Positions 1 through 56,932 of a stretch of DNA of 64,000 nucleotides are shown piece after piece (position 1 is the first letter of the stretch; every line of letters starts with the position of its first letter). The stretch spans positions 802,241 through 866,240 of the forward strand of contig OY763921.1 in the NCBI GenBank assembly GCA_963667625.1. The letters are read 5' to 3'. The notes under the pieces are model-generated. The model saw only the letters and a program-made list of their open reading frames with translations. It had not been told where the DNA came from and made no database searches. The stretch is from Thermodesulfobacteriota bacterium (GTDB lineage Bacteria > Desulfobacterota_D > UBA1144 > Nemesobacterales > Nemesobacteraceae). Made by a program: the position numbers and the translations under genes.

Positions 1-512
1 TGGTTTATGCGCTCAAAGATATCGTCTTCGTCAACATTTGGGTTTGTTTTGCAGTATTCTCGCACAAGCACAAAAGTTTTCGTCTGAGGAGCGAAGACAG
101 TGGCTATGTCGGCAATCCATTCAGGGTCTTTTTGTATTGCTGGGTTTGTTACCTCAAACTTTTCTTCTCTGGGGTGAAAAGCTATAGAGATACGAGTTCT
201 TTTATAATTTTTGTTAATCACCTGCTGCCCTAGCAGTGCTGCAAGAAGTGCCGTTACTCGTTGCTGACCGTCGATTAGGATTTTTTTGCCAGCCGATTCA
301 GAGCCATCTTTTAGGCGAATGTTCGGATTTTGCCAAGAAATTAGATACCCAACGGGATAGCCGTTATAGAGCGAATCAATAAAGTCGCGCACTTTCGCGG
401 CACTCCATACAAAGGGGCGCTGTATATCGGGAATGGCAATTTCACCTGCCTTTATCCAAGCTAAAAGAATAGCAATAGGGTGTTGATTTACCGAATAACG
501 TTGAATGGACAT
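1..512 (-). CDS. DUF262 (ParB/GmrSD-like nuclease-NTPase N-terminal domain) protein, N-terminal part only; the gene runs off the window start
   Basis: Minus-strand ORF with ATG at about 512-510, preceded by GGGAGG about 6 nt upstream. The translation [36 protein letters not shown]...[18 protein letters not shown] contains the DGQQR signature of DUF262. This ORF is not in the supplied track because it is partial. Confidence 0.65.
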
Positions 513-764
513 AAGTTCCTCCCATGTGAGTTGTATTATTTGATTTGCGAGAGTAACACGAGTTCAAATAAGTTTAGCTGAACAATTTTCTTTCGTGGAA
601 AAACTAATTGCTGAGTTCGTCACGAAGATATGGTTACTTTATCAGAAATTGGGGGTTTTCCGCAGTTGTCGCTAGAACAAGCGGTCTTTCCAAGGCCTGA
701 ACGGAAACTAACACTGCCACTAAATATTTGTGAAGTAACCTGTCTCTTTTGTGCTATAATAAAA

Positions 765-789
765 CGTGCTTTCAAGTTTGAAACGCAAC
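765..789. repeat. IS30 left terminal inverted repeat (25 bp)
   Basis: Exact reverse complement of 1820-1844. Confidence 0.85.
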
Positions 790-868
790 TTTTGATGTAA
801 ATTAAAAGGGCAAGTTGCGATAATCTTCGCAACCCTCTTTTAACGACCAAATCAAAAGGAGCGTTTGA

Positions 869-1837
869 ATGAGAAAACCAAAGCAACTTACCCTGGAACA
901 AAGATACCAGATTTACATCCTGCGCAAAGCAGGGCACAACCAGACCCAGATCGCAAGGCACCTGGGCGTGCACAAATCCACCATAAGCAGGGAACTTCAC
1001 CGCAACCGCGGCAAACGGGGTTACCGTCCCAAGCAGGCTCAGAGGCTTGCGGAGGGCAGGCGCAATTGTTGTGGAAACCGTATCCCCCAACAAACCTGGA
1101 TTCGCGTGGAGCTGCTGCTCGGAGAAGACTGGAGTCCCCAGCAGATAAGCTGCTGGCTTGCCCGAAACGAAAGACTCAGCGTAAGCCACCAGAGCATCTA
1201 CAATCACGTAAGGGAAGACAAGATTAATGGAGGAGATCTCCACACGCACCTTCGCTGCCGCAAGAAGCGCAGAAAGCGCTACGGAGCGCCCTCGCGCAGG
1301 GGACATATAAAAAACCGTGTCTGTATAGACCAGCGCCCCGAAGTGGTGGATAAGCGTGTGCGCTTAGGAGACTGGGAAGCCGACACTGTGCTTGGCTCAA
1401 GAAAAAAAGGCAAGGTGCTCGTAACCCTCGCCGAGCGCAAGTCCCGCTATTGCATGATTCTGGTCTCTGAGGACAAAAAAGCTTCCTCCGTCTCCCGGGC
1501 CATACTCGAGGCGGCGACACCCATGCGCAAGCGCTTCGAGACTGTGACGTGCGATAACGGAAAGGAGTTCGCGTTGCATGAGGAACTATCAAGCGAGCTC
1601 TCGGCGCGGTGGTACTTCGCCCATCCTTACCACTTGTGGGAGCGGGGGTCCTGTGAAAACGCAAACGGACTTATAAGGCAGTACTTCCCAAAGGGAATGG
1701 ACTTCGGGAAACTGACGCAGGAAGATGTAGACAGAGTTATGGACAAATTGAACAACAGACCGAGGCAATGCCTTGGCTTCAAAACCCCGAATCAGGTACT
1801 CTTCGGTGCTGATCCACCTGTTGCGTTTCAAACTTGA
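869..1837 (+). CDS. IS30 family transposase (DDE), 322 aa
   Basis: An N-terminal HTH (LTLEQRYQIYILRKAGHNQTQIARHLGVHKSTISRELHRN) is typical of IS30 transposases. The C-terminal DDE region (DWEADTV...DNGKEF...) lies between the inverted repeats. Confidence 0.9.
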   Translation: MRKPKQLTLEQRYQIYILRKAGHNQTQIARHLGVHKSTISRELHRNRGKRGYRPKQAQRLAEGRRNCCGNRIPQQTWIRVELLLGEDWSPQQISCWLARNERLSVSHQSIYNHVREDKINGGDLHTHLRCRKKRRKRYGAPSRRGHIKNRVCIDQRPEVVDKRVRLGDWEADTVLGSRKKGKVLVTLAERKSRYCMILVSEDKKASSVSRAILEAATPMRKRFETVTCDNGKEFALHEELSSELSARWYFAHPYHLWERGSCENANGLIRQYFPKGMDFGKLTQEDVDRVMDKLNNRPRQCLGFKTPNQVLFGADPPVAFQT

Positions 1838-1844
1838 AAGCACG
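1820..1844. repeat. IS30 right terminal inverted repeat (25 bp); it overlaps the transposase stop codon
   Basis: Exact reverse complement of 765-789. Confidence 0.85.
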
Positions 1845-1852
1845 AAATTATT

Positions 1853-2209
1853 ATGTATGTAAAAAAGGTTAAAGAAGTAGAGAGTACGATTATCGGAGCA
1901 GGACAGGGTACTTCAAGGCAGGTTCTCATCAGTCCGGAGGAAGGTCCTAATTTCGCGATGAGAAAGTTTGTTATGCAGCCTGGAGGCGATATCCCCGCTC
2001 ATACCAATGCTGTTGAGCACGAGCAATATGTGCTTGGTGGCAAGGCACGTATTGGAATCGGAGACAAAGTGTATAACGTCGAGAAGGATGACGTAGTCTT
2101 TATTCCTGCCGGGGTGCCCCACTGGTATGAAGTCGATGGTGACGAGCCTTTTGAGTTTCTATGTCTTGTACCGAATCTTGAAGACAAGATAGAACTTATT
2201 AATAAGTAA
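1853..2209 (+). CDS. Cupin-domain protein (cupin_2 type), 118 aa
   Basis: The conserved cupin motifs are present: G(X)5HxH-like PGGDIPAHTNAVEHEQYVLGG and GxxxxxPxGxxH-like DVVFIPAGVPHWY. The ATG lies only 8 bp after the IS30 right inverted repeat. Confidence 0.7.
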   Translation: MYVKKVKEVESTIIGAGQGTSRQVLISPEEGPNFAMRKFVMQPGGDIPAHTNAVEHEQYVLGGKARIGIGDKVYNVEKDDVVFIPAGVPHWYEVDGDEPFEFLCLVPNLEDKIELINK

Positions 2210-2570
2210 GCTTGAAGTTTGGGAATTATTCCCTTCCAAGGTTTTCTTGTTATCCCCGAGCGATGAATTTGAGCAAAGTAGCCGGGTTTCCTCGGCTAGG
2301 TATGCTCTGTTCAATAATGATTTTCTGACACCGTCGCCCATTCCTTAATTAGCACCAATCAAGGTATGCTACGCAGAGACCTTTTTCCGAGGTGGCTTCT
2401 ACGGCCTCTTCTCTCTATTTTCCCATGACAGCGGATTATCTTTCGATCAAAGATTGCTCGAATGGTCTAGACGGCCGCTTCACAGGTGGAGAGAGGGATT
2501 TATCAGTAGATAAGGTGGATAGGGGCAAAGTTCACTCTAATCACAACAAGAAAAAAAGGAGAAAAATGAG

Positions 2571-2762
2571 ATGACATATATAGACGGTTTCGGGAAAGCG
2601 GTTCCGACTGCAAACAAGCAGAAATTCATCGACCATACCAAATTAGCCGGCAGCCTGATTAAGGAACTCGGCGCGACCCGCATTCTTGAATGCTGGGGTG
2701 ACGACGTGCCAGACGGCAAGCGGGTGATCTATGGCGGGTTACAGACATTGAGGTGTGGATAG
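2571..2762 (+). pseudogene. Truncated DUF1428-like ORF (63 aa, versus about 115-120 aa in full-length members)
   Basis: The N-terminus MTYIDGFGKAVPTANKQKF...ILECWGDDVPDGK matches the DUF1428 N-terminal pattern (xYVDGFVxxVP...ECxGDDVPxGK), but the ORF stops prematurely. There is a strong RBS, aaaggag. Recognised from memory of the family. Confidence 0.35.
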
Positions 2763-2858
2763 ATGCCCGAGAAAAATACGGGGCGGGGTGGTTAACGAAT
2801 CGGTAAGAATCGGAGTAAATGAAGCTAATTGATACTAACTATCAGGAGGATTTACAAT

Positions 2859-3323
2859 ATGGAATTCAAACTACTTGAATGGAGTGTAACAGGACTAATT
2901 CAAGGTATACCCCTAGCATTACTTGTTGCAGCAGCTCATAAGGTTGCTCTCCATCGGAGAAAAGAAGATCAAAAAGAAGCTCTTCGTGAAATTATCTCTG
3001 AGAGCGTGAGATTGATTATGACTGTGGGAGACAATGATCCATTCGGTTCAGAAAAACTCTGGAGTCGTGCTCGAAAAAGAGTTTATGATGAAATGTATAA
3101 GAAGGTTCATTTTTTGCTGGATCATAAAATGACTGAGCTTGATTACGAGGATGAAGTTAGAATCAGAGAGGCATTTGCTTCCTTTAAAGATAATCTGGCT
3201 TTGTTTGAAATTGATTCATTTCCATCTCTTGAGATTTACTACCATGGACTCATTAAGAAGTTGAGAAGAGTTGAATGGTTGGGAATTGAGGAACCTGACA
3301 AACCACTTCCTTTTTATGACTAG
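2859..3323 (+). CDS. Hypothetical protein with an N-terminal transmembrane helix (AT-rich orphan)
   Basis: ORF with AGGAGG 9 nt upstream of ATG 2859. No recognisable domain. AT-rich codon usage unlike the core genes. Confidence 0.45.
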   Translation: MEFKLLEWSVTGLIQGIPLALLVAAAHKVALHRRKEDQKEALREIISESVRLIMTVGDNDPFGSEKLWSRARKRVYDEMYKKVHFLLDHKMTELDYEDEVRIREAFASFKDNLALFEIDSFPSLEIYYHGLIKKLRRVEWLGIEEPDKPLPFYD

Positions 3324-3823
3324 TAATAAGTAAAGGCTCTGCCAGCAGAAAGCTCTCTTTTTGACATTGCGGTTACTCTCGTTTGAATCGGTCTTAGAGT
3401 ACTGGAAAGTACCACCGTAACGCAAGAATGAAATTGAAAACATGCGGAAGTCCGCGTGTGTTTTAGGGTAGTGCTGGCTTGCGGTTTCGCATATTACATC
3501 CTTGGCATCCAGTATATGCTGCCCAACCGCTGTCGGATATGTGGAAATATGAAAAGACGAACGGTAGTGGGACGGCCCTCGGCGCGGGAAAATACAAAAC
3601 GGTTACCGGGGAAAATGCCAGAGCCGCGGGGCAGAGGTTGAAAACCGCCGGGCCCGGCACAGAGGTTCCCGTGAGTTAGGCTTTACTCGGGAGCGAGTGG
3701 TTGAGAGAGTCCACGCTGGCGGAAGCACGTTTTGGCTTTCTTTAAGAGATAACTGGTAAGAGAGAGAAAGGCTATGGTCGGGGAAGCAAACAAGGGAAAG
3801 CTTGTAACAATTTGCTACAAATG

Positions 3824-4525
3824 CTATCCCGATATCAACCATTCCCTTACGGCTTTTTGCTCTTCTGTCATCCCTGACTCCGGCACTATAGTCATTCCTA
3901 TAACGTCAAACCCCTCCTTCTTTACCTTCTCCTGATTCAGGTAAAGCAACGCCTCTGCCAAGAGATGGAACATGTCCTGATCGGGTAGCGGAATTCCCGG
4001 CTTGCTCTCAATCAATGTTCCCTTCCAGTGTACGTGGAAGTATCTATAGTCTGAATACGAAGAGTTGTACCTTTTTAGACAATCTACCAAGTCATCCTCG
4101 GAAATTTTGCCCATGTGACCCAAGTCATCCATTTTTCGAATTATATAATCACTACTTACGCCTTCCTTGCCCTCTCTCCCCTTCTGCACCTCATTGTAAA
4201 GATAATGCAGTTCGTGCAGTTTGTAAGGAGATGCTTTGATAGGAGTGGAAAAGTGAAGAAGAAAAAGAAGACGTAGAGATTGTTCCACGGACAGCAAAAT
4301 CAATTCGAAAGAAACTTGGGTGAAATACCAAGTATCAATGGTAAAAGAATTGTCGCGGGCAATCCTCCTGCACAAAAGCGATGCACGTTGATGAGCTCGT
4401 GCGGCAGCCATCATTAGCGGCACCGCATTTTCTATTCCTTCAGAAGTCAACTCTTCATTACCTTTTGTTTCTCTAGGTGTTGTCGTTTTCTTGTATCTCT
4501 CCAGTATTCGAGTTAGGTAATACAT
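3824..4525 (-). CDS. Hypothetical protein, 233 aa (AT-rich orphan, island cargo)
   Basis: Long ORF with no recognisable motif. Lies in the AT-rich island beside tRNA-Ser. Confidence 0.45.
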   Translation of the reverse strand: MYYLTRILERYKKTTTPRETKGNEELTSEGIENAVPLMMAAARAHQRASLLCRRIARDNSFTIDTWYFTQVSFELILLSVEQSLRLLFLLHFSTPIKASPYKLHELHYLYNEVQKGREGKEGVSSDYIIRKMDDLGHMGKISEDDLVDCLKRYNSSYSDYRYFHVHWKGTLIESKPGIPLPDQDMFHLLAEALLYLNQEKVKKEGFDVIGMTIVPESGMTEEQKAVREWLISG

Positions 4526-4840
4526 TGTACATGACTCCTAGAAACGAACGAACAGGGACCCTGTCAGCGTTCTGGCCGCGTGGGGGGTAAGAGCGGAGAG
4601 ACTCTGGCGGGGCGTGGAGCTTGTCCAGGCGGCTGTCAGTTGAAACCCTTGAGGCCCTGGGAAGGATTGTAGAAGCGGAACTTTCGGCCAAGCTGTTTCC
4701 CGTAAGTATCAGATGGCAGGAACTAAGGGCGTCAGACCTTCAAACGAGGGCATGTTCCGTGGATTCCCTAGTAAAGGTCGATGTGGAAAAAGGAAAAGCA
4801 ATGGAGATAGCGGGTCTTTCGGTATAAAGTTAAAATGTCT

Positions 4841-5578
4841 TTAGTCATTCTCTTTTCCGTTGCCTGGAAAGGGGGTCCCTAGGTTGCTCCCGCTTCCCGG
4901 GGCTTTTTCTTTACAGTGGCAAAACCTAAGGAATCGTCGGCAAAATCCGAAAAAGCTGTATAGAGGAACTTCTTCTTCTAACATTTCTAAAATAGATTTA
5001 ATTGATCTTGTAAGGGATTTGTGATTCTGGATTAGTTTTAGAGCAGATTCCCCAAGGTTAACATAGAGGCTAGAATGCATTCCCGCTCCTTTTAAATCCA
5101 AAAACGAACTATATTGCTTCCTGTATTCTTCATGCTTATTTACAAAAATCTGTAAAGACATATAAATACTCACTATTTCACTTCGCAGGTCTGAGTTCTT
5201 AATCTGACCGATGAGATTTGCATTTGAACGATAAACGATCGCATAATCTTTAGGCATCTGTAACGGGCCCGTAAAAAAAAGGGGAGGATCATACTGATTT
5301 GGACTACTCTTTTTAAAGTCCTTCCACTTCTCTTTTTCATACTGCGAGATAAGTTGCTTATAGACTGTATTAAGTTCTGCGCAAATCCCCTCTAAGACAC
5401 CTACAATTCTCTGGCCTCGACGTCTATTATCCGAAGCCATCTGAAATACATACGTCACAAAAGCACCCACAAAAGCACCCACAAGAGCAGCTGTAATAGT
5501 GCCCACAATAACGGCCGTAGTAGCGTCCTTAGTTATTAACTCATTGAACCATGTTATTAAGCCATCAATCAAACCCAT
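4841..5578 (-). CDS. Hypothetical membrane-anchored protein, 245 aa (N-terminal TM helix AVIVGTITAALVGAFVGAFVTYVF)
   Basis: Long AT-rich ORF with a predicted single N-terminal TM segment and a soluble C-terminal domain without recognisable motifs. Confidence 0.45.
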   Translation of the reverse strand: MGLIDGLITWFNELITKDATTAVIVGTITAALVGAFVGAFVTYVFQMASDNRRRGQRIVGVLEGICAELNTVYKQLISQYEKEKWKDFKKSSPNQYDPPLFFTGPLQMPKDYAIVYRSNANLIGQIKNSDLRSEIVSIYMSLQIFVNKHEEYRKQYSSFLDLKGAGMHSSLYVNLGESALKLIQNHKSLTRSIKSILEMLEEEVPLYSFFGFCRRFLRFCHCKEKAPGSGSNLGTPFPGNGKEND

Positions 5579-5695
5579 AAACTTTTCTCCTTATTATTTC
5601 TTATATCAAGCTGGTTCTATTGTGGGATACAAAAGGGTATTTCCTTCCTTGCTCCCCCGGAAAACCTTTTGTTTTCAGGCAGTTATAAATTTATA

Positions 5696-5787
5696 TGGCG
5701 GAGAGAGTGGGATTCGAACCCACGAGGGAGCGTAAACCCCCTACACGCTTTCCAGGCGTGCACCTTCGGCCACTCGGTCATCTCTCC
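5696..5787 (-). tRNA. tRNA-Ser (anticodon GGA), type II with long variable arm, CCA encoded
   Basis: The minus-strand sequence GGAGAGATGACCGAGTGG...CACGCCTGGAAAGCGTG...GTGGGTTCGAATCCCACTCTCTCCGCCA folds as acceptor GGAGAGA/TCTCTCC. The anticodon loop is CTGGAAA. Confidence 0.85.
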
Positions 5788-5913
5788 GTGTGTTTTTGTT
5801 CTGATGACACTACAAGCTGTCATTTTTTTGGGAGTTTTATAAACAATTTCCCGCAGTTTGTGAAAAACCCTCTCTAGTTTAACAAGAGAATCGGTGTTTG
5901 TTAAACTATCAAA

Positions 5914-6450
5914 ATGCCAAGAAAATGGAAGCTTCAAAAGAGCACTCCACTCAACGACTACAGAATTTTTTTGACGAAGAAGAAAAGCACCATCTCGCCC
6001 AAAGACGGCGCCGTCCACGATTTCTACGTAATGGACGCTCCTGACTGGGTTAACATTATCCCTGTTACGCCCTCCGGTGAAATTGTTCTTATAAAGCAGT
6101 TTCGCCACGGCACCGCAGAGGTCACGCTTGAGATTCCGGGTGGAATGATCGACCCGGGAGAAAGCCCTGCTGAGTGCGCGCGCAGAGAGCTCCTTGAGGA
6201 AACGGGGTTTACCTCCACTTGGTGGGAGCAGATAGGGTGCGTACGGCCGAACCCGGCCTTCATGTCGAACTCCTGCTATACCTTCCTGGCATCTGGGTGC
6301 GAGCGGACATCTGAACCGTCTTTTGACACTACAGAAGACATAGAAACCCTGCTTGTCGCTCCGCGGGAAATAAAACGATACATAAGGGAAGGCACCATAG
6401 ATCACTGCATAGTGATAGCGGCGTTCGGGTTTTACTTTCTCGGGGAGTGA
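5914..6450 (+). CDS. NUDIX hydrolase (ADP-ribose pyrophosphatase-like)
   Basis: The Nudix box GGMIDPGESPAECARRELLEETG is seen directly. Confidence 0.8.
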   Translation: MPRKWKLQKSTPLNDYRIFLTKKKSTISPKDGAVHDFYVMDAPDWVNIIPVTPSGEIVLIKQFRHGTAEVTLEIPGGMIDPGESPAECARRELLEETGFTSTWWEQIGCVRPNPAFMSNSCYTFLASGCERTSEPSFDTTEDIETLLVAPREIKRYIREGTIDHCIVIAAFGFYFLGE

Positions 6451-6500
6451 CTCTGTTGATTTCTCCGGGTTTAGCGAGAATAATAGTCCCCTATCTTAGA

Positions 6501-6584
6501 GGGCGGGTGGCGGAATAGGTAGACGCGACGGCCTCAAAAGCCGTTGGGCTTCGGCCCGTGAGGGTTCGATTCCCTCTCCGCCCA
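6501..6584 (+). tRNA. tRNA-Leu (anticodon CAA), type II
   Basis: GGGCGGGTGGCGGAATAGGTAGACGCGACGGCCTCAAAAGCCGT + variable stem-loop TGGGCTTCGGCCCGT + GAGGGTTCGATTCCCTCTCCGCCCA. The anticodon loop is CTCAAAA. Confidence 0.8.
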
Positions 6585-6625
6585 GAAAAAAGCGTCTGCT
6601 TCCCTTTCCCTAAAACTTCTGATCC

Positions 6626-7774
6626 TCAGTATCTGGCCATATCCGAGTCGTACTTCTCGGCCCACTCGTCTATGCCGCCCTTGAGGTTCTTAACTCTGCT
6701 GAAACCCTGCTCGACAAGGAAAGTCGCGGCTTTCATGCTTCTTCCCCCGTGGTGGCAGTGAATGACTATATTGTCCTTCGGGTCAAGTTCGTTCGTTCTG
6801 TCCTTGAGTTCGCCGAGGGGAATAAGCCTTGAACCCTCGATGTTGCATATTTCGTACTCATGGGGCTCTCTGACGTCGATCAGAATTATATTGTCCCTGT
6901 CTTCCTTAATAACGTTGAACTCCTCAACCGTTATCTCTTCGACCTTGGGTTTTTCCTCTTCAACCTCTTCGCCTCTTCCGATGCCGCAGAACTCCTGATA
7001 GTCTATGAGTTCCGTTACGGTGGCGTTCTCGCCGCAGACGGGGCAATTAGGGTCTTTCCTCAGCTTGAGGATCCTAGGCTCCATGTTGAGAATGTCAATG
7101 AAGAGAAGTCTTCCTATAAGCGGCGTTCCCTCGCCGATTATAAGCTTTACGACCTCGGATGCCTGCATGGTTCCCACAACTCCGGGCAGTATTCCCAACA
7201 CTCCTCCTTCGGCGCAGCTCGGCACTAGTCCCGGGGGAGGGGGTTCCGGATAGAGACACCTGTAGCAGGGGCCTCTTTTCGCGTCGAACACGCTTACCTG
7301 ACCCTCAAACCTGAAGATGCTCCCGTAGACGTTCGGAATTCCTAGGAAAACACAGGCGTCGTTTGTAAGATACCTCGTGGCGAAATTGTCCGTTCCGTCA
7401 ACGACCACGTCATAGTCTTTCATGATCTCCATGGCGTTGTCCGAGCTAAGCATTTCGTTATAGGTAACGATATTGGTATCGGAGTTAAGCTCTAGGAGGC
7501 GGTCCCTTGCGGATTCCACCTTGGGAGTGCCAACGGTCTTCTCGCTGTGGATAACCTGCCTTTGCAGGTTGCTGAAATCTACAACGTCGAAGTCCAGTAT
7601 TCCCAGGGTGCCTACCCCCGCGGCCGCGAGGTAGAGAGCAAGCGGAGACCCAAGCCCTCCGGCGCCGATACACAGGACCCTTGAGTTCTTGAGTTTTTTC
7701 TGTCCCTCAATGCCGACTTCGGGCATTATAAGGTGCCTGCTGTATCTAGTTATCTCCTGGTTGCTTAAGTCCAT
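6626..7774 (-). CDS. moeB: Molybdopterin/thiamin-synthase adenylyltransferase (MoeB/MoeZ/ThiF family) with C-terminal rhodanese domain
   Basis: Nucleotide-binding GIGAGGLGSP, zinc-binding CYRC...CPVC, and a C-terminal rhodanese domain with the active-site loop CHHGGRS. Confidence 0.85.
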   Translation of the reverse strand: MDLSNQEITRYSRHLIMPEVGIEGQKKLKNSRVLCIGAGGLGSPLALYLAAAGVGTLGILDFDVVDFSNLQRQVIHSEKTVGTPKVESARDRLLELNSDTNIVTYNEMLSSDNAMEIMKDYDVVVDGTDNFATRYLTNDACVFLGIPNVYGSIFRFEGQVSVFDAKRGPCYRCLYPEPPPPGLVPSCAEGGVLGILPGVVGTMQASEVVKLIIGEGTPLIGRLLFIDILNMEPRILKLRKDPNCPVCGENATVTELIDYQEFCGIGRGEEVEEEKPKVEEITVEEFNVIKEDRDNIILIDVREPHEYEICNIEGSRLIPLGELKDRTNELDPKDNIVIHCHHGGRSMKAATFLVEQGFSRVKNLKGGIDEWAEKYDSDMARY

Positions 7775-7925
7775 TTTGAATACCTTCCTTGCGATCTAAA
7801 ATATTCAGACAGTAAAGTTATTACATGATCTGCATATTTTCAAACCGCAAACGCAACTTTCCCGTCAGTTAAGAAGCGGGAATTTCCCTGGAATTGGAAT
7901 AACCGAATTCTTAGTTTCCTGGGAA

Positions 7926-8129
7926 TTAATTCTTTACTACTACGTTGGTTGCGGTGGGTCCTTTTTTACCTTGAGTGATCTCAAAGCTTACTTCGTCACC
8001 CTCATTGAGAGTTTTGTAGCCATCGCCCTCAATAGCGGAGTAATGAACAAAAACATCATCCTGCACTTCGTTGGATGTTATAAATCCATAGCCTTTGGAG
8101 CTATTAAACCATTTTACAGTTCCCTGCAT
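7926..8129 (-). CDS. cspA: Cold-shock protein (CspA family), copy 1
   Basis: [17 protein letters not shown]...VFVHYSAI carries the RNP1 (KGYGFI) and RNP2 (VFVHY) motifs. Confidence 0.9.
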
Positions 8130-8163
8130 TGTAATACCTACCTCTTAAATTAATGTTTGCGGG

Positions 8164-8192
8164 ATTATCCCACACCTATATCACTTTGTCAA
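8164..8192 (-). promoter_or_regulatory. Sigma70-type promoter for csp copy 1: TTGACA - 17 bp - GATAAT
   Basis: The minus strand reads gtTTGACAaagtgatataggtgtggGATAATccc, about 34 nt upstream of the ATG. The RBS aagaggtagg follows. Confidence 0.5.
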
Positions 8193-8287
8193 ACTGTGCT
8201 TCCTCCGTCTCCAGAAAAAATTCTGGATGCGGAGGAAAACATACAGTAGTTCTCAAAGCGTTTCGCGGTATACCTGCGTGCGTATCA

Positions 8288-8306
8288 AATCCGCGCAGAG
8301 CGGATT
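8288..8306 (-). terminator. Candidate intrinsic terminator of csp copy 2 (stem AATCCGC/GCGGATT, 5-nt loop) followed by TTTGAT
   Basis: The hairpin starts 2 nt after the copy-2 stop codon. A degenerate copy of the same hairpin lies at about 8667-8688. Confidence 0.4.
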
Positions 8307-8307
8307 C

Positions 8308-8508
8308 TTAAGCAGGCACAACGTTGGTTGCGGTGGGTCCTTTTTTACCTTGAGTGATCTCAAAGCTTACTTCGTCACCCTCATTGAGAGTTTTGTAGCC
8401 ATCGCCCTCAATAGCGGAGTAATGAACAAAAACATCATCCTGTACTTCGTTGGATGTTATAAATCCATAGCCTTTGGAGCTATTAAACCATTTTACAGTT
8501 CCCTGCAT
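8308..8508 (-). CDS. cspA: Cold-shock protein (CspA family), copy 2 (tandem duplicate)
   Basis: 66 aa, identical to copy 1 except for the last residues (NVVPA versus NVVVKN). The DNA is nearly identical over the CDS. Confidence 0.9.
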
Positions 8509-8544
8509 TATAATACCTACCTCTAGAAATTTAATATCCGCAGG

Positions 8545-8573
8545 ATTATCTCGGACCTATATTGTTTTGTCAA
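8545..8573 (-). promoter_or_regulatory. Sigma70-type promoter for csp copy 2: TTGACA - 17 bp - GATAAT
   Basis: Same architecture as for copy 1. The minus strand reads TTGACAaaacaatataggtccgaGATAAT. Confidence 0.45.
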
Positions 8574-8706
8574 ACAAAATTTTTCCTTCTCCAGAAAAAA
8601 TTCTGGGTTAGAGGGAAACTATATAGTGGTTCTCAGAATTTTTCACAGTATAATTACGTGCATCCCAAATCCGCGCAAAGTGGATTCTTAAGTAGGTATA
8701 AAATCA

Positions 8707-9261
8707 ATGGAAGATAGAAAAAGAAAGAGAATCTATATTTTCTGCATAGTGCTGTTTCTGCTCGGAGGGGGGCTTTTCTTTTATAACGTGGTGAAAAGCT
8801 TCACCGGCCTTGGCTCAACGCTTAGCGAATACACTTTTCCGGGAAGCCACTCAATCCGGCTTGAGAAAAAGGGGCTTTATTCGATCTACCACCAGTATGA
8901 AAGCGCTTTTGACGAAGCAAAGACAAGCGGGGACTCCGTCGGGGAGGGCTCGATAGTCGTTTACCTGAGAAAAGCTTCCGACGCGGAAAACGTGGAACTC
9001 AAGGTGCCCGATTCTCAGAAAAGATACAGTTACATGGGAAAGAGGGGAGTGAAGATATTTGAGTTTGAAAACCCCGGGCCGACAGCTTACTTGATCGAAT
9101 CTTTCTCAAGTCCCACTTCGCAACTCTCCCAGTACACCTTGGTTCTTGAGCGCGGGTTCGAGATAACAAGGCTTAAAGGAATACTTATCTCCCAGGCGTT
9201 TTTGCTTGTCCCGACCCTTTTCGCGATAATACTTTTCATGCGCACCTACATAAGGAGCTGA
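8707..9261 (+). CDS. Hypothetical membrane protein (TM helices at the N- and C-termini)
   Basis: ORF with the hydrophobic segments IYIFCIVLFLLGGGLFFY and LISQAFLLVPTLFAIILF. Confidence 0.5.
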   Translation: MEDRKRKRIYIFCIVLFLLGGGLFFYNVVKSFTGLGSTLSEYTFPGSHSIRLEKKGLYSIYHQYESAFDEAKTSGDSVGEGSIVVYLRKASDAENVELKVPDSQKRYSYMGKRGVKIFEFENPGPTAYLIESFSSPTSQLSQYTLVLERGFEITRLKGILISQAFLLVPTLFAIILFMRTYIRS

Positions 9262-9270
9262 CCGCGGCGG

Positions 9271-10134
9271 ATGTTCAGAGAAGTAAAATCCCGGGTTCTT
9301 GCTTTCGACATAGAGTGGGTTCCAGACCCCGAGTCGGGAAAGGCCGCGTACGGACTTCCTGGAGATATGCCCGACCGCGAAGTGATCGAGTTCATGTGGG
9401 AGCAGGGCGGGGCGACCGAAGAAGAGCCAATGCCGTTTCTCAAGACGGTTCTCTCAAAAATAGTTTCCATCTCGATGGTCTTTCGCGAATCGGAAAGAGA
9501 CGGAACGGCTTCAAGACTCAAGCTTCACTCGATTCCGTCGATTCCGACCTCTGAAGAGGATTGCTCGGAGAGAAGAATCATAGAAGATTTCTTCAGGATT
9601 CTCGACAAGCACCACCCGCAGCTTGTGGGATATAACTCTTCGGGTTCCGACATACCGATTCTGGCACAGAGAATGATCAAGCACGGGCTCCAGGGCGGTT
9701 TTTTCACCCAGAGACCCAACAGGCCTTGGGAAGGAGCTGATTTCTTCGCCCGCGGAAGCGACTGGAACGTCGATTTGATGCGCTGCGTGAGCGCATGGGG
9801 GAAAGGCACCCCGTCTCTTCACGAAATATCGGTTGTAAGCGGAATCCCGGGCAAGATGGAGGGAGTCGATGGGAAGCAGGTCGCCCCAATGTGGCTTGAA
9901 GGAAAACTTGACGATATAGTCGCCTATAACGAGTGTGACGCTCTTACGACCTATCTTCTGTGGCTCAGGATGGCCCACTCGATCGGACACTTCGATTCAA
10001 ATCAGTACGCGGAGGAACAGCGCCTGCTTCGCGACATGATAAAGCAAGAGTCTGAGAGCCCTCAAAGGCGCCGGCATCTTCTGAGTTATCTCTCAAAGTG
10101 GGAGAGCCTGAGCGGGGTAGGGGTGGATGAGTAA
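9271..10134 (+). CDS. Predicted 3'-5' exonuclease of the RNase H-like/DEDD type, PolB-exonuclease-like (COG3298-like)
   Basis: Exo I-like LAFDIEWV and Exo III-like YNECDALTTYLLWL (YxxxD) motifs. Assignment is by motif memory. Confidence 0.55.
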   Translation: MFREVKSRVLAFDIEWVPDPESGKAAYGLPGDMPDREVIEFMWEQGGATEEEPMPFLKTVLSKIVSISMVFRESERDGTASRLKLHSIPSIPTSEEDCSERRIIEDFFRILDKHHPQLVGYNSSGSDIPILAQRMIKHGLQGGFFTQRPNRPWEGADFFARGSDWNVDLMRCVSAWGKGTPSLHEISVVSGIPGKMEGVDGKQVAPMWLEGKLDDIVAYNECDALTTYLLWLRMAHSIGHFDSNQYAEEQRLLRDMIKQESESPQRRRHLLSYLSKWESLSGVGVDE

Positions 10135-11089
10135 GCAGTCCCACAGCCACGGCGTCGCCGTCCTTTCCTTCTACAAGTTCGTTGATCTTGACGGCCTTTT
10201 AGAAATAAAGGACTCCCTGCTTTCTCTCTGCGGGGAAAGCGGCATAAACGGCACCTTTATTCTCGCTTCTGAGGGAATAAACGCCACCGTGGCGGGCCCC
10301 CAGGAGGGCATAGACGGGCTTATTGCCTATCTTGAGAGCGACACGAGGTTCTCGGGCGCGCAGTACAAGCTCAGTTACAACGAGAAAAGTCCTTTTCACA
10401 GGCTCAAGGTCAAATTCAAGAAGGAAATGGTTCCCATGGGCGTAAGCGGCATAAGGCCGCAGCACCCCTCCGGGGAGCGCGTCCCGCCCGAGCAGTGGAA
10501 CGAGCTTATAAGCCGCCCCGACGTGCTCCTTATAGACACGAGAAACGATTACGAGAACCGCGTCGGAACCTTCAGGGGCGCGGTGAATCCCGAGACGGAG
10601 CACTTCAGGGAGTTTCCCGAATACGTGAGGGAAAACCTCGACCCCGCAGAGCACAAGGAAGTTGCGATGTTCTGCACGGGTGGGATAAGGTGCGAGAAAG
10701 CGACCTCTTATCTTCTTGAGATGGGATTTAAGCGGGTGTATCAGCTCGAAGGGGGAGTGTTTTCCTACCTTGAGCAGGTTCCACGCGAGCAGAGCCTCTG
10801 GGAAGGGGAGTGTTTCGTGTTTGACGACCGCACCTCGGTCGGCCACGATCTTTCCAGGGGAACTTGGAGTACGTGCAGGAACTGCAGGGAGCCCGTATCT
10901 GCGCAGGACAGGCAGTCAGAAGGGTTCCGGGATGGAATATCCTGTCCCCGCTGCCACGCGAAGCTTACTCCCGAGAGGACTTCATCGCTTGAGGAAAGAC
11001 AGAAGCAGATGAGGCTTGCCAGGGAGAGAAACCGCAAACATCTTGGGGCCGTAATAAGAAGAGGGAGTGCGAAACGGGCGCAGGGTTAA
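10127..11089 (+). CDS. trhO: Rhodanese-domain tRNA uridine(34) hydroxylase TrhO (YceA/UPF0176 family)
   Basis: The N-terminal YKF..L region, the central rhodanese domain with active-site Cys in MFCTGGIRCEKA, and the C-terminal Cys cluster CRNC...CPRC fit the YceA family. Confidence 0.75.
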   Translation: MSKQSHSHGVAVLSFYKFVDLDGLLEIKDSLLSLCGESGINGTFILASEGINATVAGPQEGIDGLIAYLESDTRFSGAQYKLSYNEKSPFHRLKVKFKKEMVPMGVSGIRPQHPSGERVPPEQWNELISRPDVLLIDTRNDYENRVGTFRGAVNPETEHFREFPEYVRENLDPAEHKEVAMFCTGGIRCEKATSYLLEMGFKRVYQLEGGVFSYLEQVPREQSLWEGECFVFDDRTSVGHDLSRGTWSTCRNCREPVSAQDRQSEGFRDGISCPRCHAKLTPERTSSLEERQKQMRLARERNRKHLGAVIRRGSAKRAQG

Positions 11090-49809: not shown

Positions 49810-50460
49810 ATGTCCATGGCCTCTAAGATACCCTACATGACGTCGACAGGATTGATTCCGAAGATATTGGAGAAAATTCAAAATGCGAGGCGGCCTGAAC
49901 GGTTCACCCAAGACTTCCTAGGAACAAAGCTCGGGCACAGCGGGGGCAGTGCACGAGCTATTATACCGTTACTAAAACGTATGGGATTTCTCGGGTCAGA
50001 TGGTGTTCCAACATTTCTATACGATCAATTCCGTAATGTCGAGACTCAAGGTTTCGCTGTTGCTGAAGGCATGAAGAATGCATTCAGTGAGCTTTTTGAC
50101 CGCAATGAATATATCTACGAAGTGTCTCGTGAAAAGTTAACAGGACAAGTAGTTGAGATCACTGGAGCAACTAAGAACGATAGAAGTACCACAGCTGTCG
50201 TCGGAACCTTTTTAGCATTGAAAGAGCTAGCAGATTTTGAGTACGAGGAGCCGGAGAATCCACTTCCTGAACCAAAATCAGAAGTGCCCCCTTTACCACA
50301 GCTTTCGAATAATGGTGAAAATGTGTCTCCGATTGGCAATAGAGATAACATTGAACTGAGAGTTGGGTATACAATCAATCTTAATCTTCCAGAAACCAAT
50401 GACCCCGAGGTTTTCACAGCTATTTTCAAAGCTCTTAGGGAAAACCTATTGAAAGACTGA
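49810..50460 (+). CDS. Hypothetical protein, 216 aa (DUF5343-like by memory); first gene of a coupled two-gene cassette in an AT-rich insert
   Basis: AT-rich ORF. Its stop TGA overlaps the ATG of the next gene (TGATG). The family call is tentative. Confidence 0.45.
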   Translation: MSMASKIPYMTSTGLIPKILEKIQNARRPERFTQDFLGTKLGHSGGSARAIIPLLKRMGFLGSDGVPTFLYDQFRNVETQGFAVAEGMKNAFSELFDRNEYIYEVSREKLTGQVVEITGATKNDRSTTAVVGTFLALKELADFEYEEPENPLPEPKSEVPPLPQLSNNGENVSPIGNRDNIELRVGYTINLNLPETNDPEVFTAIFKALRENLLKD

Positions 50461-51041
50461 TGCGTGCAGAAGAAGCGATTAAATTATTTGGGTTAAACAA
50501 TTTGACTATCGAGTCAAACATTCGACAGATAGAAAGGAAGTACGATATCAACCTTGGTCACAAGAAGGATAAGGAACAAAGAACAGATCAAACATATTAT
50601 CCTCAATTTGCCGAGCGTCTTCGAGCTGAAGCGTCTCGTATGTCGGCAAATTATACAATTTTCTACTGTCTTGAGAACAGTATCAGAGAATTAATTGTTC
50701 AACGGCTTGAAGAAGAACACGGCACTAACTGGTGGGACACGGCCGTACCAAAAGTCGTTCGTAGCAATGCTGAGAAAAATCGAGAGAAAGAACTATCATC
50801 AGGTGTTACTCCCCGTTCAACAGAGCTAATAGATTTCACAAATTTTGGGGAGCTGGGGGAAATCATTAAGGCTAATTGGGACATTTTTGGTGATATGTTT
50901 CGCGATGTTCGAGCGGTCGAAAAGGTTCTGGCAACGCTTAACACATTGCGTGCGCCCATAGCACACTGCAAAACACTCGCAGAGGATGAGGAATTACGAC
51001 TGCATCTTGGCCTGCGCGACTGGTTTCGCCAGATGGAATAA
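50460..51041 (+). CDS. Swt1-like HEPN-domain protein (putative RNase), 193 aa
   Basis: Rx4H motif in LNTLRAPIAHCK, embedded in a predicted all-alpha protein. Translationally coupled to the upstream gene. Confidence 0.5.
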   Translation: MRAEEAIKLFGLNNLTIESNIRQIERKYDINLGHKKDKEQRTDQTYYPQFAERLRAEASRMSANYTIFYCLENSIRELIVQRLEEEHGTNWWDTAVPKVVRSNAEKNREKELSSGVTPRSTELIDFTNFGELGEIIKANWDIFGDMFRDVRAVEKVLATLNTLRAPIAHCKTLAEDEELRLHLGLRDWFRQME

Positions 51042-52550: not shown

Positions 52551-55127
<2,577 letters not shown>

Positions 55128-55166
55128 CAACTCACTTTCTCCACTTCAGCCCCATCTACGATAGTT

Positions 55167-55802
55167 TTATGCTTCCCATAACTTTTCTAACTCGGGAGAT
55201 TCACCGATTTCGTTATTCGGGTCGTAGAACTTAGAAGACTTTAATATCCAAATAGACTTATTTATAGATGCCTCGATTTTCTTTTCTTTCTCTTGCTGTT
55301 CATAATACAGGCTCGCATACGAGATGTTCTTGCTGTCCAGTGCTAAGAGCTTTATTGTTTCTAATACATCAATACAAATATTAGGGATACCTTCGAGAGA
55401 TATTGACCAAGAAAGATTAGGCTGAAAATGTTCGAAATTATTTCTAAAGTGACGATGTAACCAGAGTATGGAGTTCTTTTGATTAAGAGTCAATTCAATC
55501 GGAAGAGAATGATAAAAACGCTTTACCCCAATACAGAGTTTTAAGGCAGTTATTAGATCGACAACCCCACCTTTTTTTCTTTGGACAATGCCTGGATTTG
55601 TCCCAGCCGCAACAGTTAATGCGAAAGTATAAAGCGAATGCTGCAAGCAGATAATTACCCATTTCCAATGGAATGCTCCCCAACAGATTCCATCATCTTG
55701 AAGTAGTCTTGTATGTTTCTCAGCTCTACAAATATATTCTTCAGCTCTGAGAAGAGAATCTACGGCATTCTCTTTGTCGTTGATTCTTAAGTAATTTCCC
55801 AT
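55167..55802 (-). CDS. AT-rich orphan protein, 211 aa, with an RNxxxH (HEPN/Abi-like) motif
   Basis: The motif WLHRHFRNNFEHF occurs in the middle of a predicted alpha-helical protein. Very AT-rich relative to neighbours. Confidence 0.4.
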   Translation of the reverse strand: MGNYLRINDKENAVDSLLRAEEYICRAEKHTRLLQDDGICWGAFHWKWVIICLQHSLYTFALTVAAGTNPGIVQRKKGGVVDLITALKLCIGVKRFYHSLPIELTLNQKNSILWLHRHFRNNFEHFQPNLSWSISLEGIPNICIDVLETIKLLALDSKNISYASLYYEQQEKEKKIEASINKSIWILKSSKFYDPNNEIGESPELEKLWEA

Positions 55803-55882
55803 TTCGGTTTGCCTTTCCTATATATGGTTGTCGGGGTTGATGTGTAAATCCCTGAAAAACAAGATTATGAACCAGTGGATTT

Positions 55883-56932
55883 CTAAAGAATTCCCGAGAC
55901 GATAAGAAAACTTATGAGGAGCAGATTGGCTACTGCTAGGGGGAAAAGCCTCTTCCAGCCGAGACTCATTACCTGATCGTACCTGAACCGTGGCAAAGTC
56001 CATCTTACCCAGATGAACAGAAAGAGTAAGAAAAGGACTTTGCCGATAAAAACGGCAGGCGGCAGATACCAATGCGTGTTGATATCAATGCCGAACCACC
56101 CTCCGATTGGTAAGGGATACCAACCACCCAAAAACAAACAAGTTATCATGCACGAAGCAACTATCATGTGAGTATATTCAGCCATGAAGAACATTGCAAA
56201 TTTCATACTGCTGTATTCGGTGTGGTAGCCGGCGACTATCTCGGGCTCGGCTTCCGGCATATCAAACGGAAGCCTGTTGGTTTCGGCAAACGCGGAAACT
56301 ACGAAAACCACAAAGCCTATAAAGGACGGGATCATAAACCACATTTTCTCCTGCGCTTCGATTATGTCCCCGAGGCGAAGCGAACCCGTTATGGCGATTA
56401 CCCCCAGTATGGATAGACCCAGAGCGAGTTCATAGCTTATCATCTGCGCGCCCGCCCGGAGGCCTCCCAGGAGTGAGTACTTGCTGTTGGAACCCCATCC
56501 GCCGAGCACGACGCCGTATACGCTGAGCGAACTTATTCCGAGCACGTAGAGAAGGCCGACATTTATGTCGGCTATCTGGAGCCTTATGAATACGGGATCC
56601 TGAAGAAATCCGAAGAGATCCGTGTGAAACCCCTTTCCTATTGGAATCACGGCGAGGGCCGCGAGGGCCGTGACGAGTGCGAACGCCGGGGCCATTATAT
56701 ACATGGTCTTGTTTGCATTTTTCGGAATTATGTCTTCTTTGAAGATGAACTTGATGCCATCGGCGAGAGGCTGGAGCAGTCCCGAAGGTCCGACCCTATT
56801 CGGTCCGTAGCGGTCCTGCATGAAGGCGCTTAACCTTCTTTCTGCGAAAGTCAGATAGGCGACAACCGTCAGGACGACGAAAAAGACAAGCGCTATCTTT
56901 GCGACAGCTATTGATATTAGAAGTGGAGTCAT
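55883..56932 (-). CDS. nuoH: NADH-quinone oxidoreductase subunit H
   Basis: NuoH pattern (RLSAFMQDRYGPNRVGPSGLLQPLADGIKF). Confidence 0.9.
   Translation of the reverse strand: MTPLLISIAVAKIALVFFVVLTVVAYLTFAERRLSAFMQDRYGPNRVGPSGLLQPLADGIKFIFKEDIIPKNANKTMYIMAPAFALVTALAALAVIPIGKGFHTDLFGFLQDPVFIRLQIADINVGLLYVLGISSLSVYGVVLGGWGSNSKYSLLGGLRAGAQMISYELALGLSILGVIAITGSLRLGDIIEAQEKMWFMIPSFIGFVVFVVSAFAETNRLPFDMPEAEPEIVAGYHTEYSSMKFAMFFMAEYTHMIVASCMITCLFLGGWYPLPIGGWFGIDINTHWYLPPAVFIGKVLFLLFLFIWVRWTLPRFRYDQVMSLGWKRLFPLAVANLLLISFLIVSGIL

Follow-up and report, generated by a model that had tools for sequence, protein, structure and literature searches.

Our analyses of a 64,000-nucleotide stretch of a Thermodesulfobacteriota genome (contig OY763921.1, positions 802,241 to 866,240 of the forward strand; the whole stretch is referred to below as the window) indicate that the segment at its left end, which leads up to a tRNA-Ser(GGA) gene, belongs to a lineage-wide plasticity zone that extends from dnaX to this tRNA gene and contains two independent insertion slots separated by the cupin gene cupB; we place the probability of this reading at about 0.7. 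An earlier note, made from the sequence of the window alone, had described the segment as a single accessory or defence island adjoining the tRNA gene. The segment is indeed compositionally deviant and absent from most relatives, but the apparent tRNA-flanked defence island of the raw sequence breaks up into two slots, an IS30 insertion in a promoter region and what appears to be the worn end of an integrative element. The lineage, Candidatus Dadabacteria, appears as Thermodesulfobacteriota in newer database records. The features on which the argument rests are as follows (window coordinates; aa, amino acids; att, attachment site).

1-512, minus strand: GmrSD/BrxU-like gene (DUF262 plus a weak DUF1524 match), first 170 of its 598 codons; Pfam GmrSD_N.
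716-763, plus strand: native upstream region of cupB with a conserved extended -10 box, TGCTATAAT (752-760); aligned by eye with the spacers of relatives.
764-1845, plus strand: intact insertion sequence of the IS30 family, 1082 bp; HTH_38 and rve matches, inverted repeats.
1853-2209, plus strand: cupin gene cupB; Cupin_2, E = 4e-17.
2571-2762, plus strand: DUF1428 stub, N-terminal half; Pfam DUF1428 positions 1-50 of 102.
2859-3323, plus strand: gene for a 154-aa protein (counted from the ATG) with one N-terminal membrane helix; best 19-aa hydropathy window 1.73.
3824-4525, minus strand: gene for a 233-aa soluble protein with a predicted HEPN fold, a divergent member of a small family for which Pfam has no model.
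4612-4827, plus strand: stub of a phage portal gene, its last ~70 codons and stop, convergent with the 245-aa gene; tblastn.
4841-5578, minus strand: gene for a protein of 245 aa that combines an N-terminal membrane helix with a helical bundle, putative att-proximal cargo of an element.
5579-5695, minus strand: conserved leader of 117 bp, from the tRNA 3' end to the 245-aa gene; DNA alignment.
5696-5787, minus strand: tRNA-Ser(GGA), at whose 3' end slot 2 has its insertion point; ARAGORN, and Rfam tRNA at 56.6 bits.

The comparisons that carry this reading were made with a 1.8-Mb contig (L001), recovered by an exact-protein look-up and 99.9 % identical to the window (L001 position minus 8148 gives the window position), and with 22 informative loci from relatives, obtained in a one-genome-per-species scan with the neighbouring NUDIX protein as query. 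Slots were mapped in L001 and the 22 relatives by tblastn synteny together with the tRNA positions given by ARAGORN. The ground-state order that emerges is recR-ybaB-dnaX, ~405 bp, cupA, ~120 bp, cupB, 23 bp, tRNA-Ser(GGA), ~125 bp, NUDIX, tRNA-Leu and moeB. ARAGORN and Rfam agree with the earlier reading on the location of the tRNA-Ser(GGA) gene at 5696-5787, where its 3' end faces the segment; each of the 22 relatives has this gene at the corresponding position, and cupB occupies its place in 21 of the 22 at 90-99 % identity. The spacer between cupB and the tRNA gene is exactly 23 bp in 13 of the 22 relatives and 3486 bp in the window genome, so that the gene order of the window, as had been expected of an accessory region, is not conserved throughout; the gap between cupA and cupB (slot 1) is ~120 bp in about half of the relatives and 3702 bp in the window genome.

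Leftward extension of the window into L001 completes the DUF262 gene and then passes a 76-aa open reading frame (ORF), cupA and dnaX-ybaB-recR. The gene cupB is a tandem paralogue of cupA (L001 5945-6298), to which it is 63 % identical; its 90 %-identity cluster has 167 members, and the two genes carry adjacent accession numbers in one metagenome-assembled genome. Since cupA and cupB are fixed in relatives, the cupin gene, correctly located at 1853-2209 by the earlier note but counted there as part of the island, is a core gene, and the "island" consists of two separate slots.

The two slots also vary independently of each other among species. In L010, L014 and L021 the gap between cupA and cupB is filled and that between cupB and the tRNA gene is empty or small, and in L012 and L017 the reverse is seen. 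A defence role had been proposed for the tRNA-proximal part, and slot 2 (between cupB and the tRNA gene) of relatives does hold defence genes, viz. HEC-01A/B in L012, an Mrr-like PDC-S02 protein in L017, L020 and L102, and a type IIG restriction-modification gene in L017. Slot 1 holds mostly non-defence cargo in relatives (BCCT transporters, a TonB-dependent receptor, an S41 peptidase and IS1595 elements), and a methyltransferase is also among the contents that differ between species. The GC content at third codon positions (GC3) is 0.29 for the 154-aa gene, 0.38 for the 245-aa gene, 0.39 for the DUF262 gene and 0.47 for the 233-aa gene, as against 0.60 +/- 0.065 for a reference set of 23 long ORFs elsewhere in the window, and the cargo thus departs from the core composition as had been anticipated.

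The same facts have to be weighed against a reading in which nothing was inserted and an ancestral gene block has undergone differential loss, the small genes being functionless, decaying leftovers. Decay is certainly pervasive in the segment (a DUF1428 stub, a methylase stub, an IS30 end remnant and the portal stub), the 245-aa family evolves with a ratio of nonsynonymous to synonymous substitution rates (dN/dS) of 0.56-0.97 and is broken in L089, L093 and L095, and the 233-aa copy of the window lacks near-invariant residues. However, the slot contents of different species are wholly different, the block carrying the 245-aa gene recurs at 73-90 % DNA identity beside different tRNA and transfer-messenger RNA (tmRNA) genes with different flanks, and the GC3 of the cargo lies far below that of the core. 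We consider an ancestral block improbable; decay after insertion is itself part of the best explanation, and only the proposition that nothing was inserted is rejected.

Somewhat less credible still is one genomic (defence) island that starts at tRNA-Ser and runs through the small "orphan" genes, the cupin gene and the IS30 element to the DUF262 gene and past the window edge. A tRNA gene with its 3' end facing the segment does stand at one end, most of the genes have a low GC3, a GmrSD-like gene is present and the gene content differs between relatives. Synteny nevertheless contradicts such an island: it would have cupB in its middle, and cupA, 1.85 kb to the left of the window, at its far side, both of which sit at fixed positions in relatives; its flanking gaps vary independently (L010, L014, L021 versus L012, L017); neither an integrase (window segment and L001) nor a repeat of the tRNA 3' end was found; and dnaX-ybaB-recR follows only 407 bp past cupA. 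The left boundary, which coincides with the stop codon of cupA, does lie outside the window, as the earlier note had supposed, ~1.85 kb further left. In the search for a direct repeat of the tRNA 3' end (attL/attR), which the note had proposed to make further left, the tRNA gene with 30 nt on either side was compared with L001 5538-13800; the longest match is of 10 nt (E = 0.9), which is at chance level. No integrase was matched by Pfam among the ORFs of the window segment or the called genes of L001 5538-13843, the only protein with an rve domain being the IS30 transposase.

Some further observations concern the variable positions themselves. In L014, L021, L023 and L027 the gap between cupA and cupB (~5 kb) carries two genes for betaine/choline/carnitine transporters (BCCT) and one for a 453-454-aa protein that has no Pfam match. 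A third variable slot lies between dnaX and cupA (~2 kb; L015, L017, L023, L030) and contains a gene for a HipA kinase that has a 74-aa partner upstream of it (HipA/HipB-like); this toxin-antitoxin pair is missing from the window genome. In L017, a 466-aa protein (5611-7011, minus strand) overlaps the 3' end of the type IIG gene on the same strand; it has no Pfam or PADLOC match, its sole match being phrog_28904 (function unknown), and it may be a specificity or accessory partner. The GC3 of cupB is low (0.43) despite its core status, and cupA is missing in some relatives.

In the tRNA-proximal part of slot 2, the block 4672-5695 shows 73-90 % nucleotide identity to L088-L095. Its 117-bp leader contains the motif TTATAACTGCCTGAAAA, which starts 9 nt past the tRNA 3' end, and it is conserved beside tRNA-Ser(GGA), tRNA-Ser(TGA) and tRNA-Ser(CGA) and also where contig L095 begins; relatives in the ground state have a different 23-bp sequence at this position. 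Judged from these alignments, the leader is probably an element-derived flank of the attachment site. Of the six distinct contexts in which the upstream sequence can be read, five have the 245-aa gene starting ~100-120 bp past a tRNA-Ser or tmRNA 3' end; L088 is the only distinct context in which no portal gene or portal stub follows the 245-aa gene convergently. The portal stub of the window is 70 % identical over 66 aa to a portal fragment in L093. Its identity to residues 285-351 of the full portal protein of L095/L099, a protein that matches Pfam Phage_portal and phrog_12, is 39 %.

One of these loci, the complete contig L099 (ENA ERZ25074053, ctg315534_8x_l, 1-10209), starts at a tRNA 3' end (CGCCA), continues with the leader, a 245-aa homologue, portal, S78 prohead protease, capsid, TerL and three small genes, and ends with a tyrosine integrase. 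Within its 10.2 kb no tail module was recognized, and the contig may not span the whole element; its five small or medium ORFs gave no informative Pfam or PHROG match. An imperfect repeat of 13 nt that the two ends of L099 have in common was considered as an att core and set aside as too weak (E = 0.43). The portal stub, the 245-aa gene and the leader of the window appear to be the surviving att-proximal end of an integrative element of ~10 kb.

The 245-aa protein, one of two AT-rich genes described in the earlier note as orphans, is no orphan: its ORF, its membrane helix (residues 23-41, hydropathy 2.32) and its low GC3 are as described, and it has 12 homologues. The motif DYxxxYRSNANLIGQI is invariant in the family, the dN/dS of which is 0.56-0.97, and broken copies have arisen through an IS3-family insertion (L093), a frameshift (L089) and the loss of the start codon (L095). 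Its predicted model is all-helical, with one membrane helix followed by a helical bundle, and fold searches with this model returned generic helical bundles only. Our preferred guess is that it would be an element-borne membrane protein that acts in the exclusion of, or interference with, other phages. A 220-aa protein of L089 (8000-8662, minus strand), near the 245-aa homologue and a type I restriction-modification system, shows a weak PADLOC match to JetD (E = 1e-5).

The second of these AT-rich genes, encoding the 233-aa protein, is likewise not an orphan. A word-indexed search found 90 homologues of ~220 aa, and an exhaustive hidden Markov model search of 1.84 billion proteins found 116 cluster representatives. 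The AlphaFold2 model (predicted local distance difference test score 84.5, predicted template modelling score 0.81) contains a helical bundle that can be superimposed on solved HEPN domains, and the predicted structure thus has the HEPN fold; the structure predictions proposed for both ORFs have hence been informative for this protein and have returned only the generic bundles for the 245-aa one. No Pfam model, those of HEPN families included, matches any of 54 members of the family at E <= 0.1, and the 233-aa protein itself also has no match in PADLOC, PHROGs or PDB sequences. An arginine (R85) is present in 54 of 54 aligned members and a histidine five residues later (H91) in 40 of 54 (74 %). 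The window copy departs from the consensus at the near-invariant positions H153Y, R181P, C188L and E200K and has a unique insertion of three residues. The only strain difference within the gene, at L001 12430 (window 4282), changes Gln82, invariant in the 54 members, to Glu. A 102-aa gene call had raised the possibility that the gene is pseudogenized in L001; its ORF is intact there and carries the single Q82E change.

In L098 a homologue of the 233-aa protein has a Type ISP restriction enzyme, a ThsB-type TIR protein and HicAB as neighbours, in L096 one adjoins a NotI system, and in the corresponding tRNA-Ser slot of further Dadabacteria (L020, L102-L104) homologues lie next to Mrr-like genes. 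In L020 and L102 the tRNA gene is followed by the att-flank motif and then by the 233-aa homologue; because the same motif elsewhere precedes the 245-aa gene, the two genes look like alternative cargo. The HEPN protein may be, or may once have been, an RNase-type effector of abortive infection or a toxin effector. A bolder proposal, which we consider rather unlikely but worth stating, is that the ~220-aa family constitutes an undescribed stand-alone HEPN abortive-infection RNase that shares an exchangeable att-proximal cargo position with the 245-aa family in satellite-like tRNA-Ser/tmRNA elements of Dadabacteria and other uncultured bacteria. The loss of near-invariant residues from the 233-aa copy, together with the near-neutral and often broken state of the 245-aa family, suggests that both genes may be decaying in this genome.

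The two genes had earlier been singled out as a pair, and they could form a two-gene defence or toxin-antitoxin module that pairs a HEPN effector with a membrane partner. In the window they lie side by side on one strand, and in L094 homologues of both are adjacent on the same strand, 92 bp apart. In the window, however, they are split by a 315-bp spacer that holds the portal stub, and their order in L094 is opposite to that in the window. Four distinct contexts of the 245-aa gene (L088, L089/L090, L091/L092 and L093) have no 233-aa homologue, nor is there one among the called genes of L095/L099, the far 3.3 kb of which was not covered by tblastn; five distinct contexts of the 233-aa gene (L020, L096, L097, L098 and L102) have no 245-aa homologue. 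Adjacency is thus seen in the window and L094 only, as against separation in nine other distinct contexts, and the two families differ about ten-fold in size. A fixed module is not supported by this distribution and seems to us very improbable; the 245-aa gene is better viewed as part of the putative element remnant, with the 233-aa gene usually apart from it.

The remaining cargo of slot 2 lies closer to cupB. The DUF1428 gene is confirmed to be a fragment, and an 82 % identical copy is present at the same place in L010; the sequence that directly follows the cupB stop codon recurs in L010 and L047. The small membrane-anchored protein described as a 155-aa orphan is present but has a length of 154 aa when counted from its ATG. 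A word-indexed search matched only the protein itself; one homologue (38 %) lies in the same slot of L017, between the Mrr-like and type IIG restriction-modification genes. None of the three small proteins (154, 233 and 245 aa) has a match in Pfam, PADLOC or PHROGs, and PDB sequences are likewise blank. A scan of 3300-5900 for promoters and terminators yielded no more than shuffled sequence did, and a scan of JGI metagenomes for the 233-aa and 245-aa families returned one short contig only.

Slot 1 of this genome carries the gene whose DGQQR signature had been noticed at the window edge. The assignment to DUF262, now GmrSD_N, holds (E = 3.7e-23 for the window part and 1e-30 for the full length), DGQQR being visible in the translation. 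The full gene (L001 6864-8660), which the leftward extension proposed earlier has recovered, is intact and encodes a single polypeptide of 598 aa. The DUF1524 (GmrSD_C) part sought at its C-terminus is weak (E = 0.0024; 18.2 bits, below the cut-off of 23), and a motif of the HxxP/N type, HIHHVFPRNYL...N, is visible in this region. The best PADLOC model is HEC-05 (profile length 600), which matches at E = 4.4e-30 in four stretches; HEC-05 is a GmrSD-like protein that is, according to its authors, essentially BrxU (bioRxiv 10.1101/2024.01.29.577857). The sole match among PDB sequences is BrxU (7p9k), at a phmmer E of 6e-6 over the N-terminal 46 residues. On these sequence grounds the 598-aa protein is probably a distant GmrSD/BrxU-like, type IV restriction-like enzyme, and it may restrict modified phage DNA. 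A truncated DUF262 gene in L005 proved to be an artefact of a run of N in the scaffold. The 76-aa ORF to the left of the gene is the C-terminal stub of a methylase/restriction fusion gene, with 51-56 % identity (E down to 6e-16) to the C-termini of plasmid genes that are annotated as N-6 DNA methylase or restriction endonuclease, and its last codons enter a 35-nt remnant of an IS30 right end (L001 6438-6472) that is 88.6 % identical to the intact IS30.

The intact IS30 itself, recognized as such in the earlier note, has a transposase of 322 aa (869-1837; HTH_38, E = 4e-17; rve, E = 4e-8) and perfect inverted repeats of 25 nt (765-789 and 1820-1844), and several near-identical copies of the transposase occur on the same 1.86-Mb contig. 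Read against uninterrupted relatives, it has AAA at either flank (762-764 and 1845-1847), although this triplet is of low complexity and hence weak evidence of a target duplication. To its left lies the conserved upstream sequence of cupB and to its right the last 8 bp before the cupB ATG; the cupA-cupB spacers of relatives are 74-120 bp long and end in ...CCGTCTTTTCTGTGCTATAATAAAA..ATG. The element represents a simple insertion of its own in the promoter region of cupB, and because it stands between the TGCTATAAT box and the start codon, cupB is cut off from its likely promoter. The gene may be silenced, or it may be driven by an outward-reading promoter in the IS30 end. The 35-nt remnant had suggested a composite IS30 transposon carrying the DUF262 gene, which we reject because the intact IS30 has AAA flanks of its own and lies inside native cupB upstream sequence ~45 bp from the cassette, and because the outer flanks of the two IS ends are unlike.

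The anatomy of the segment, its backbone, its homologies and the HEPN fold of the modelled protein are the directly demonstrated parts of our best explanation, and the following order of events is what we infer from them. Slot 1 would have gained a cassette composed of the GmrSD/BrxU-like type IV gene and a methylase/restriction gene, and a single later deletion would have left the C-terminal stub of the methylase together with 35 bp of an old IS30 copy. After this decay of the cassette, a second IS30, still intact, would have inserted alone between the -10 box and the start codon of cupB. Slot 2 would owe its contents to one integration after another at the tRNA 3' end, the most recent material being that closest to the tRNA gene; the HEPN-fold 233-aa gene, the 154-aa membrane protein and the DUF1428 stub, which lie further in, would be the older cargo. 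The last arrival would have been an element of ~10 kb, later deleted down to its leader, the 245-aa gene and the portal stub.

Several points weigh against this scheme. With no att repeat or integrase in this genome, integrase-mediated entry is deduced from related loci only, and insertion, as against loss, is only the more probable direction of change in the slots. The sharing of the DUF1428 stub with L010 and of the sequence after cupB with L010 and L047 implies that part of slot 2 may be old. As regards the element, the 233-aa and 245-aa families are both absent from IMG/VR viral contigs and without a match in PHROGs; no small terminase, head-tail connector, regulator or replicase was recognized in L099 by Pfam or PHROGs; and one 87-aa product of L099 matches Pfam Phage_tail_C. 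In the 233-aa family, the Rx4-6H motif is only partly conserved.

Elsewhere in the window, tandem cold-shock protein genes (7926-8129 and 8308-8508, minus strand) lie in a direct repeat of ~381 bp with 87.7 % identity, and relatives have one or two copies of them. Patches of low GC content at 50001-51000 (0.42) and 55001-56000 (0.40) could be other accessory segments.

With regard to their wider meaning, these results point to a recurrent plasticity zone in Dadabacteria, from dnaX to tRNA-Ser, where the defence systems that are kept differ from species to species. The region is ordinary in kind and does not overturn current ideas; what is mildly new is a compact HEPN-fold family that has no database model and a set of ~10-kb elements, with an integrase and a head module, that resemble capsid-forming phage satellites and come from uncultured hosts. 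If the reading of both as satellite and satellite cargo were correct, it would widen the range of capsid-forming satellites, and of defence carried by satellites, to a candidate phylum from which there is as yet no description of either.

The main components of the zone can be compared with known systems. The closest comparison class for L099 is that of the phage-inducible chromosomal islands of the capsid-forming type (cfPICIs), as defined in PMC10085698 and described from Proteobacteria and Firmicutes. L099 shares with them an integrase at one end, an accessory gene at the opposite end, and genes for TerL, capsid, prohead protease and portal with no recognized tail or lysis module. It differs in having no recognized small terminase, head-tail adaptor or connector, AlpA-type regulator or primase-replicase, in its gene order (TerL-capsid-protease-portal) and in its uncultured host, and the window retains only ~1.1 kb of an L099-like element. 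Since several defining components of cfPICIs are not recognized in L099, we speak of resemblance and not of classification.

Stand-alone HEPN proteins of defence and toxin systems (viz. AbiV, HEPN-MNT toxins and the HEPN domain of Csm6) resemble the 233-aa family in the invariant arginine with a mostly conserved histidine five residues further on, and the family, like them, stands beside restriction, TIR and HicAB genes. It differs from them in lacking a Pfam HEPN match, in its larger size (~220 aa, with an insert of ~85 residues), in having neither MNT nor any other fixed partner and in retaining His91 in only 74 % of members; the window copy, in addition, lacks several near-invariant residues. 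The 598-aa protein is like GmrSD and BrxU in its N-terminal DUF262 domain with DGQQR, its length of ~600 aa, its C-terminal motif of the HxxP/N type and its top model, HEC-05. It is nevertheless only distantly related to them (a 46-residue match to 7p9k, with GmrSD_C below the cut-off), and its gene stands alone between two cupin genes, not within a BREX/Hma system.

As for the zone as a whole, slot 2 resembles the integration hot spots and defence islands known from tRNA genes in that its cargo is variable and compositionally deviant and occupies a fixed position at the tRNA 3' end, where relatives hold different defence systems. The zone departs from that pattern in two respects: the integrase and att repeats are gone in this genome, and a second slot, 3.5 kb away and not adjacent to the tRNA gene, varies independently and also admits genes unrelated to defence, for example those for BCCT transporters and a TonB receptor. 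The label "defence island" thus fits slot 2 as a lineage-wide hot spot, and it fits slot 1 only by virtue of the GmrSD-like gene that this genome carries there.

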